From: Eubacteriales bacterium
GTDB taxonomy: Bacteria > Bacillota > Clostridia > Oscillospirales > CAG-272
Direction of reading: 5' to 3'
DNA length: 64,000 nt
Assembly (NCBI GenBank): GCA_045580835.1
Contig: JAZNOM010000091.1
Span: 1,552 to 65,551, forward strand
Shown piece by piece: positions 21,194 through 59,108 of the stretch (position 1 is the stretch's first letter; each line of letters starts with the position of its first letter). Made by a program: the position numbers and the translations under genes. The notes under the pieces were generated by a model. That model saw only the letters and a list, made by a program, of their open reading frames with translations. It did no database searches and was not told where the DNA came from.

Positions 21194-21250
21194 CACCGCG
21201 CGCTTTCAAACTTTTGTGCAAAATATTTTCAAAAATTTGTGTTTTTCTAC

Positions 21251-21279
21251 TTGACTTAACAAAAAATCTGTGATATACT
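21251..21279 (+). promoter_or_regulatory. SigA promoter of tRNA-Pro
   Basis: TTGACT-N17-TATACT with TG extension. Confidence 0.75.
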
Positions 21280-21295
21280 TTACAGGTGCTTAAAT

Positions 21296-21371
21296 CTGGG
21301 TGTGGCGCAGTTGGTAGCGCGCTACCTTGGGGTGGTAGAGGCCGCAAGTTCAAGTCTTGTCACTCAGACCA
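21296..21371 (+). tRNA. tRNA-Pro (anticodon GGG)
   Basis: Acceptor CTGGGTG/CACTCAG-A-CCA, D arm GCGC/GCGC, anticodon arm CTACC-TTGGGGT-GGTAG, T arm GCAAG-TTCAAGT-CTTGT; 76 nt. Confidence 0.97.
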
Positions 21372-21372
21372 A

Positions 21373-21411
21373 GTAAAAGAGGAACACTTTTGTGTTCCTC
21401 TTTTACTTTTT
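21373..21411 (+). terminator. tRNA terminator
   Basis: GTAAAAGAGGAACAC-TTTT-GTGTTCCTCTTTTAC followed by T run. Confidence 0.8.
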
Positions 21412-21420
21412 CTTGGGATA

Positions 21421-21624
21421 GATAAACTTGAACTCGCGGTCATCGACCATGCCACGTGCCACGTAGTGGCTACTTGGGGTGGTAGGGTGAGCGAGCAAAA
21501 ACGATTGAGTATCGTTTTTGCGAAGCGTGTCACGAAAATAAGAAGTTGTCATCGCCGAGCGTATCGAGGCGATGTACAACGACTATATTTTCGGAAGGGC
21601 CGCGCATACATCAAGTCTTGTCAC
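21421..21624. other. Structured tRNA-Pro-derived element (antisense T-arm copy + split tRNA 3' copy + hairpins)
   Basis: 21426-21441 is antisense to the tRNA variable/T arm. 21469-21485 copies the anticodon arm (1-nt deletion). 21598-21603 and 21611-21624 copy the variable loop and T arm/acceptor. Confidence 0.65.
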
Positions 21625-21727
21625 ATGACTAAAACTATTCACCAAAATTGAATAATACAAGCAATATTGTAATTAAATCCGTTTATTCACATATACTTTT
21701 ACAAATTCTATTACGAAAGGCGGATTT

Positions 21728-22231
21728 ATGAAACGTTCAATTTCTCTTTGGCAATTCTTTGGTTTTCTTTTTACCTCGGTACTTGGAACACTGCTTCATT
21801 TTCTCTATGAGTGGAGCGGCGAAAGTGCACTTGTTGCACCGTTTGCAGCAGTAAACGAGTCTACATGGGAGCATATGAAAATCCTATTCTTCCCAATGCT
21901 TATTTTTGCAATTATAGAAAGCCGACTGTTTAAAGAATATCAGAATTTTTGGTGCGTCAAACTGAAAGGTATTTTGCTTGGGCTTTTGCTGATTCCCGTA
22001 ATTTTTTACACATATAACGGCGCTATCGGAATCTCGCCCGACTTTGTAAACATAGCAATCTTTTACGTAGTTGCGGCAATTTCATATGTTTATGAAACAA
22101 AACGGTTTAAATCAGGCTCGCAAAACTGCAATCAAGCGGCGGCAATCGGCACGCTTTGCATTATCGTGCTTTTGTTTGCAATTTTCACGTTTGTTCCGCC
22201 TGCGCTGCCGCTATTCATATCTCCCGTATAA
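21728..22231 (+). CDS. DUF6512-like membrane protein
   Basis: GTLLHFLYEWSG, VNESTWEHMKILFFP; five TM helices. Confidence 0.75.
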   Translation: MKRSISLWQFFGFLFTSVLGTLLHFLYEWSGESALVAPFAAVNESTWEHMKILFFPMLIFAIIESRLFKEYQNFWCVKLKGILLGLLLIPVIFYTYNGAIGISPDFVNIAIFYVVAAISYVYETKRFKSGSQNCNQAAAIGTLCIIVLLFAIFTFVPPALPLFISPV

Positions 22232-58992: not shown

Positions 58993-59108
58993 TGTCATCC
59001 TGAGGAGCGAAGCTACGAAGGATCTGCATCCCGCAAGGGATGTCTAAAAGAAGAAAAACCTTGCCCAAAGCAAGGTTTTCAGATTCTTCGCATGCGCTCA
59101 GAATGACA
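58993..59108. repeat. REP-like palindromic element (TGTCATCCTGAG...CTCAGAATGACA) enclosing two hairpins
   Basis: Outer IR 11/12; inner IR CGAAGGATCTG/CAGATTCTTCG 10/11; internal hairpins CATCCC-GCAA-GGGATG and AAAACCTTGC-CCAAA-GCAAGGTTTT. Confidence 0.75.

Follow-up and report, generated by a model that had tools for sequence, protein, structure and literature searches.

Islands carried by tyrosine integrases duplicate the 3' part of the tRNA gene that they enter, restore an intact gene in front of themselves and bring their own terminator. REP/BIME elements are gene-less mosaics of palindromic modules, presumed to be mobilized in trans as single-stranded DNA, with a tetranucleotide at the junction. 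In the accessible part of its discussion, PMC11893778 names REP/BIME together with the RAYT (Y1) transposases. The tRNA-linked repeats (TLRs) of Escherichia coli are described in the available text of PMC8144298, which cites Rudd 1999, as non-coding sequences behind tRNA or rRNA genes, one to several per locus, whose end copies the 3' end of the upstream gene and whose function is largely unknown. Here we describe an element of about 220 nt behind the tRNA-Pro(GGG) gene of a 64,000-nt stretch (the window, whose numbering gives all positions below) in contig C91 of an Eubacteriales genome, G000.

The locus behind tRNA-Pro(GGG)

The locus is flanked by DUF4279 and DUF6512 genes, and its features are collected in Table 1; the names of cassette types ('C', A, B and so on) are labels coined in this analysis. 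The 226 nt from the end of the tRNA to the resumed sense copy are non-coding only, with no integrase or island cargo.

Table 1. Features of the tRNA-Pro(GGG) locus in window numbering
Feature	Positions	Strand	Basis
Sigma-70-like promoter of the tRNA gene	21251..21279	+	10/12 consensus positions, extended -10; consensus match only
tRNA-Pro(GGG), intact	21296..21371	+	ARAGORN; Rfam RF00005, 62.3 bits
Intrinsic terminator, where the fold-back first turns	21371..21412	+	17-pair stem and T run
Antisense tRNA copy, worn, acceptor stem back to anticodon loop	21417..21456	-	Alignment to tRNA
Turn-around hairpin: 5-bp stem, C-GTA-G triloop	21458..21470	+	Sequence
Anticodon-arm sense copy, one C missing	21469..21485	+	13-mer exact
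Cassette 'C': two-hairpin insert, 115 nt, at tRNA GAGG site	21485..21599	+	Family alignment, covariation, junction mapping
Cassette hairpin 1	21495..21521	+	11-bp perfect inverted repeat; 95% of cells paired over 44 copies
Cassette hairpin 2: basal stem conserved, internal loop purine-rich, upper stem varying freely	21534..21592	+	
Resumption of the sense copy, with variable loop, a disrupted T loop, the exact 14-mer and a decayed acceptor/CCA end	21598..21632	+	

The antisense copy is identical to tRNA bases 21326-21365 in 30 of 41 columns, a level reached by none of 2000 shuffles, and its own tRNA is the best fit among all 38 tRNA and tmRNA genes of G000. Once the cassette is removed, 42 of 54 columns of the sense copy agree with the tRNA from the anticodon stem to the CCA, and no second terminator is left after the resumed part of the copy. 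G runs at the ends of cassette 'C' overlap the target. All the pieces named in an earlier note on this DNA are present. The 14 of 16 match of 21426-21441 to the variable loop and T arm stands, whereas its start, put at 50 nt after the tRNA, lies at 54 nt; the anticodon-arm repeat lacking one C was read correctly. The tRNA sequence resumes, as had been claimed, with an exact 14-mer (at 21350 and again at 21611), for which the rough chance expectation is 7e-5 in 300 nt. The two strong hairpins both fold, the stretch as a whole having a folding energy of -88.5 kcal/mol (z -7.8) that none of 200 shuffles equaled.

Because contigs from four DNA runs, belonging to four studies, span the cassette, it is real and not an assembly artefact. 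A single difference separates 21412-21632 from runs X1 and X3, and between strains the following intergenic stretch varies as little as the unit does, for which reason we rejected the strain data as a sign of selection on the unit. Over 21728-22100, the DUF6512 gene shows about 30 mostly third-position differences from the X1 and X3 strains, against 3 in the preceding 380 nt, and its allele was possibly imported. A weak minus-strand promoter match at 21732-21705 (9/12) was discarded as chance level.

By eye, the full layout also occurs at the tRNA-Pro(GGG) of L003, L060, L068, L128 and L129, where the arms match the local T-stem variant. The Pro(GGG) locus was assessable in 15 of 19 genomes of the genus, and inspection by eye gave whole units in 10, remnants in 2 and none in 3, with three cassette types among the units. 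Inspection by eye also showed units stacked one behind another in G002, G003 and G018, every one with a terminator of its own. Those of G002 include two unlike units in tandem, the second having a near-window terminator and another cassette, and a near-identical window terminator heads units with other cassettes in both G002 and G004. A newest-first order held in 5 of 6 stacked cases and was not significant (p 0.22). Four DNA runs contained no joints indicating circles or an empty/filled polymorphism, and movement is therefore slow or old.

In this genus tRNA-Pro(GGG) is also an island hotspot, with islands at L008, L010, L012 and L013. A 3-kb integrase island in the tRNA-Pro(GGG) of G013 has an exact 46-nt attR starting from the anticodon loop, after which an intact unit of the window layout follows, now 3 kb from the tRNA. 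The island itself (L146, G013:C10:96500-100600) carries only integrase-like, Rep-like and HTH-like frames, so labeled by reading their translations. Could the element be the decayed attR of an ordinary integrase island that has lost its cargo? Sense copies do begin at the anticodon or T loop, like the attR repeats of islands, the 46-nt attR of G013 among them. Such a remnant would have neither an antisense arm nor a shared cassette within the copy, however, and the G013 island possesses its own exact attR with the whole element intact after it. The suspicion that a plain decayed attR is insufficient is thereby upheld, and we find this origin hardly credible. The hotspot also bears on the idea that the host keeps dead tRNA copies and hairpins as a decoy or landing pad, drawing integrases or single-strand nucleases off the working tRNA. 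The near constancy of the unit between strains would fit this idea, but the equal invariance of the next intergenic stretch means that no selection has been shown, and in G003 and G013 islands nevertheless integrated into the real tRNA, with the unit ending up behind them. We regard a host-kept decoy as very improbable.

Fold-back copies and the cassette family

Of the 38 tRNA and tmRNA genes in G000, 27 are cluster-terminal with at least 150 nt downstream, and in 14 of these the downstream DNA repeats the gene's own 3' end in sense orientation, with a match above all 200 shuffles. The gene's own sequence ranked first for 13 of the 14 copies. Antisense arms are short and worn, and reached p 0.01 at only 4 of the 27 genes. 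A few types of interior are shared among the G000 units: Trp, Leu and Arg have one type in common, and a second is found at Ser, Glu, Arg and tmRNA. Arms that track the adjacent tRNA, in G000 as in the relatives above, combined with inner hairpins that are shared, support the earlier proposal of a miniature tRNA-targeting element with tRNA-derived ends.

Mirror forms, in which a cassette breaks a copy of the 5' half, stand upstream of tRNAs in contigs C40, C33, C37 and C97 of G000. At C33, C37 and C97 they lie between the promoter and tRNA-Pro(TGG), tRNA-Ser(CGA) and tRNA-Pro(CGG), contain other cassette types and are in tandem at C37; from this position they are probably transcribed. Further arrangements were noted elsewhere in G000. 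By eye, a tRNA-Asn copy at C61:30050-30600 is interrupted throughout by hairpin cassettes, and after the 23S rRNA end at C24:64600-65243 only a terminator and the cassette of C61 are left. At C1:20650-21100, C34:1-400 and C34:4750-5250, tRNA-derived arms with no adjoining tRNA lie beside C-rich repeated ends, and these C1 and C34 units were probably displaced by integrated elements. Behind tRNA-Gln(TTG) and tRNA-Cys (C55 and C73) there are common long mosaic hairpin stretches with no detectable copy of the tRNA tail.

Antisense identity is highest over the T arm (0.70-0.76, versus 0.47-0.58 in controls) and falls to that of controls over the acceptor strand (0.50 versus 0.48). The pairing of this arm with the downstream copy, which had been suggested to close the whole element, is not borne out overall: in 38 rows, which include a few neighboring tRNA genes that are not units, the copy was the better match in 7 and the true tRNA in 29, with 2 ties, and a test for compensation between arm and copy accordingly failed. 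Clear compensatory insertions in the T loop were confined to some of the type-B units (L002, L004 and C71 of G000). The second terminator resembles the first of its locus in only 7 of 34 units, which is expected if units bring their own terminator.

G000 holds two copies of cassette 'C', both at tRNAs: that of the window and one at C40:9794-9905, within the 5'-half copy ahead of tRNA-Ser(TGA). An exact 20-nt motif located 51 loci in species genomes and a gapped motif located 17 in metagenomes. We aligned 44 copies, 42 of which came from the exact-motif search and have a 3' motif that is invariant by construction, and drew the structure by hand from the alignment and fold data. Paired cells amounted to 95%, against 39-52% with the structure slid, and the covariation score was 0.292, compared with 0.103 after shuffling that leaves kinship among the copies in (0 of 500 reached it) and 0.03-0.06 in slid controls. 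The covariance model, a check proposed in the earlier note, matched 24 of 101 genomes of the family and 3 of 151 genomes of the class, G000 being counted in both. Searching the order with an exact motif gave 7 of 400, 4 of them chance matches within genes. An archaeal-labeled match to the 20-nt motif (L065) lies inside a gene and was likewise set aside as chance.

Removal of partial, flankless and near-duplicate sequences reduced 125 profile matches to 74 distinct copies. A tRNA-derived flank was found in 57 of the 74 (Ser 30, Met 14, Pro 11, other 2), as compared with 2 of 74 control flanks. Left flanks could be mapped for 46 of the 74 at a looser threshold, and 37 of these start at GAGG or GGGG; the entry positions are 26 of Ser, 44 of Pro and 51 of initiator-type Met. 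All copies sit in dead partial tRNA copies or in unassigned flanks, and none in a called tRNA. Three cassette patterns had no match in viral contigs, where the type-A pattern had one, after a tmRNA-end fragment, and no cassette was found in plasmids and phages. No published description of cassette or unit came to light in a literature search that mostly did not reach subscription journals; the accessible main text of PMC8040213 has no such unit, and its supplementary motif tables may hold the cassette. The cassette is apparently one member of an undescribed family. The element recognized earlier is thus real and larger than had been described, but it is not a single entity: a scaffold produced by fold-back duplication has to be told apart from the cassette, which is mobile on its own.

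A scaffold of this kind might have arisen by replication accident and passive capture, with ODIRA-like switches of template at the terminator and at the arms of the tRNA, and with the hairpin repeats copied by ordinary recombination between tRNA loci, no dedicated enzyme being involved. The layout is an inverted triplication turning at short inverted repeats, as is the ODIRA product in the available text of PMC10766183, in some copies (L054, L049) the antisense arm is almost perfect as far as the CCA, and no enzyme was linked to the units (see below). An accident would nevertheless leave unexplained why a fixed 115-nt cassette occurs at GAGG or GGGG in three unrelated tRNA positions and why its hairpins covary strongly while their sequence changes freely, a combination that implies selection on the fold. 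On balance, we consider the replication accident unlikely.

Nucleic acid, enzyme and proposed mechanism

The 14 units of G000 contain C-GNA-G triloop stems 10 times on the tRNA strand and once on the other, with an expectation of 0.85 per strand. Mini-hairpins of this sort are much more stable as DNA than as RNA, according to the accessible part of PMC13037366. The loop of hairpin 1 has 3 nt in 31 of 44 copies and 4 nt in none, its triloops being mostly not GNA, and the tRNA terminators have 4-nt loops in 18 of 29 cases. The loop types lean toward DNA over RNA; folding energies do not separate the two. Reads from RNA runs X15, X16, X19 and X20 cover only the tRNA, and their flanks come from other organisms. 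The unit is probably mobile structured DNA rather than RNA.

A functional RNA, the other option of the earlier note, could take the form of a read-through or leader transcript whose antisense arm pairs with the T arm of the real tRNA and tunes its processing, or of a tRNA-like decoy. The predicted fold of the read-through transcript does pair 21426-21441 with the tRNA, the upstream copies stand between promoter and tRNA, and the available text of PMC8144298 gives three E. coli TLRs located after rRNA operons as expressed small RNAs. The antisense identity that peaks over the T arm, and fits the true tRNA over the copy, keeps a role as RNA in contention. Against it, the unit sits after a 17-pair terminator, and in G013 an island separates it from the tRNA by 3 kb; its presence and cassette type differ between congeners; its loops are triloops, not RNA tetraloops; and the Rfam scan asked for in the earlier note returned no model above gathering score over the element besides tRNA. 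We judge a functional RNA to be improbable.

No enzyme gene recurred within 2.5 kb of the 51 cassette loci, and among 132 tRNA loci there was no gene-bearing unit, one ordinary island excepted. G000 has two Y1 transposase matches, one with a stop, whose flanks are unrelated to the cassette; the RAYT-like gene of the genome has its own palindromes, unlike the cassette. It also has five tyrosine recombinases, one DUF559 gene and two stand-alone reverse transcriptases of 336 and 578 aa (L143 in C88 and L144 in C48), which by size and motifs we take to be retron-like and Abi-like. None of the Y1 transposases, reverse transcriptases or the DUF559 gene adjoins the cassette. The G000 assembly (89% complete) contains no single-domain small GIY-YIG gene, only a 633-aa GIY-YIG frame of UvrC size, and 11 other GIY-YIG loci that we inspected had no tRNA or cassette within 1.5 kb. 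Within the genus, small GIY-YIG frames occur patchily, being absent in the unit-bearing G000, G001 and G002 and present in G007, G011 and G016, all without a unit at Pro(GGG). Hairpin 2 of the window copy resembles hairpins by small GIY-YIG genes of congeners; with this likeness seen in only 1 of 74 cassettes and the published SRM pattern in none, we rejected hairpin 2 as an SRM at the level of the family. A separate 25-nt hairpin repeat, at 59082-59107 on the minus strand of the window and at about 13 other places in G000, resembles the repeats that flank small GIY-YIG genes in G008, G009 and G013 (L159, L160 and L162) and has no match to the published SRM pattern.

Any account of the unit has to cover its layout, the conserved fold of the cassette, the GAGG or GGGG sites in several tRNA types, and the exchange of cassettes and stacking of units at one locus. 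Our preferred reading, to which we give a probability of roughly 0.58, sees the unit as a non-autonomous insertion element, one that travels in the form of folded single-stranded DNA and depends on an enzyme encoded elsewhere. Folded, the repeating unit, made up of tRNA tail, terminator, antisense arm and cassette, would have the shape of a dumbbell, its stem resembling the double-stranded end of the tRNA gene. A single exchange of strands, or a switch of template, in the region of the T arm and acceptor would then, once replication resolves it, leave the tRNA intact at the front, with the old tail displaced to its rear as a dead sense copy. A new tRNA target would need arms re-copied from that target by snap-back synthesis. 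The fit of the antisense arm to the true tRNA over the downstream copy counts against a self-closing stem. As for the enzyme, a rough split gives equal shares, each of about a third, to a host or island tyrosine recombinase and to a small single-strand nuclease (Ssn-like GIY-YIG or HUH) acting with repair, and a slightly smaller share to other activities. The unit is most likely selfish or neutral DNA, surviving because the working copy of the tRNA is never broken. Possible, if doubtful, is a wider claim: an undescribed class of enzyme-less, target-programmed single-stranded DNA insertions in bacteria and archaea, having a folded cassette, a 4-nt site in tRNA genes, fold-back-copied arms, integron-like arrays and a dedicated enzyme acting in trans.

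With about half of the terminal tRNA genes of G000 carrying units, tRNA loci of gut Clostridia are being remodeled by something that annotation misses. If movement as folded single-stranded DNA with target-copied arms is true, it would be a new site-specific insertion chemistry that spares an essential gene, of consequence for how genomes evolve and possibly useful as a tool. Fixed ends, a 4-nt target, a covarying fold and 74 natural variants define the cassette, which offers a bait or substrate that makes the idea testable.

Comparison with known systems

The units share with ODIRA, as the accessible part of PMC10766183 presents it, the order sense-antisense-sense, turns at short inverted repeats and, in our model, a hairpin-capped intermediate, whereas ODIRA is there a process of yeast, on a kilobase scale and with no foreign cassette. 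Like integrase islands, they duplicate the 3' part of a tRNA, leave the gene intact in front and have their own terminator; unlike them, they measure about 220 nt, lack an integrase, possess an antisense arm and hold a cassette inside the duplicated part, and in G013 the unit is a separate object beside a true island. Gene-less palindromic modules with a tetranucleotide at the junction recall REP/BIME, from which the cassette differs in having only two copies in G000 and in being bound to tRNA-derived sequence.

The NTS/SRM sequences of Ssn are strand-specific hairpins acting as single-stranded DNA in the available text of PMC11893778, and to that extent they are comparable. That text has no mention of tRNA, however, and the SRM search sequence is absent from all 74 cassettes and from 21200-21700 of the window. 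The model for integron attC sites in the accessible part of PMC3458562, with a folded single strand and a double-stranded site, exchange of one strand, replicative resolution and stacking at one entry point, is the one that we would apply here. In contrast to integron cassettes, the units have no gene inside, no integrase beside them, a tRNA gene as target and a stem copied from each target; in keeping with this, neither an integron integrase nor an attI was seen beside the arrays, no recombinase recurring beside the cassette loci.

The E. coli tRNA-linked repeats come nearest to the units. Both are non-coding, end in a copy of the 3' end of the upstream gene, and lie in or behind tRNA or rRNA operons with one to five per locus. 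The last 18-19 bp of a TLR are identical to the tRNA 3' end; the unit of the window has 14 exact nt and a decayed CCA end, and the full identity is found in L009, L029 and L147. By description, the units are set apart from TLRs, as far as the available text of PMC8144298 portrays them, by the antisense arm, by a cassette that tRNAs of different types have in common at one fixed 4-nt site, and by the upstream 5'-half form. The units may nonetheless bear on the origin of the E. coli repeats.
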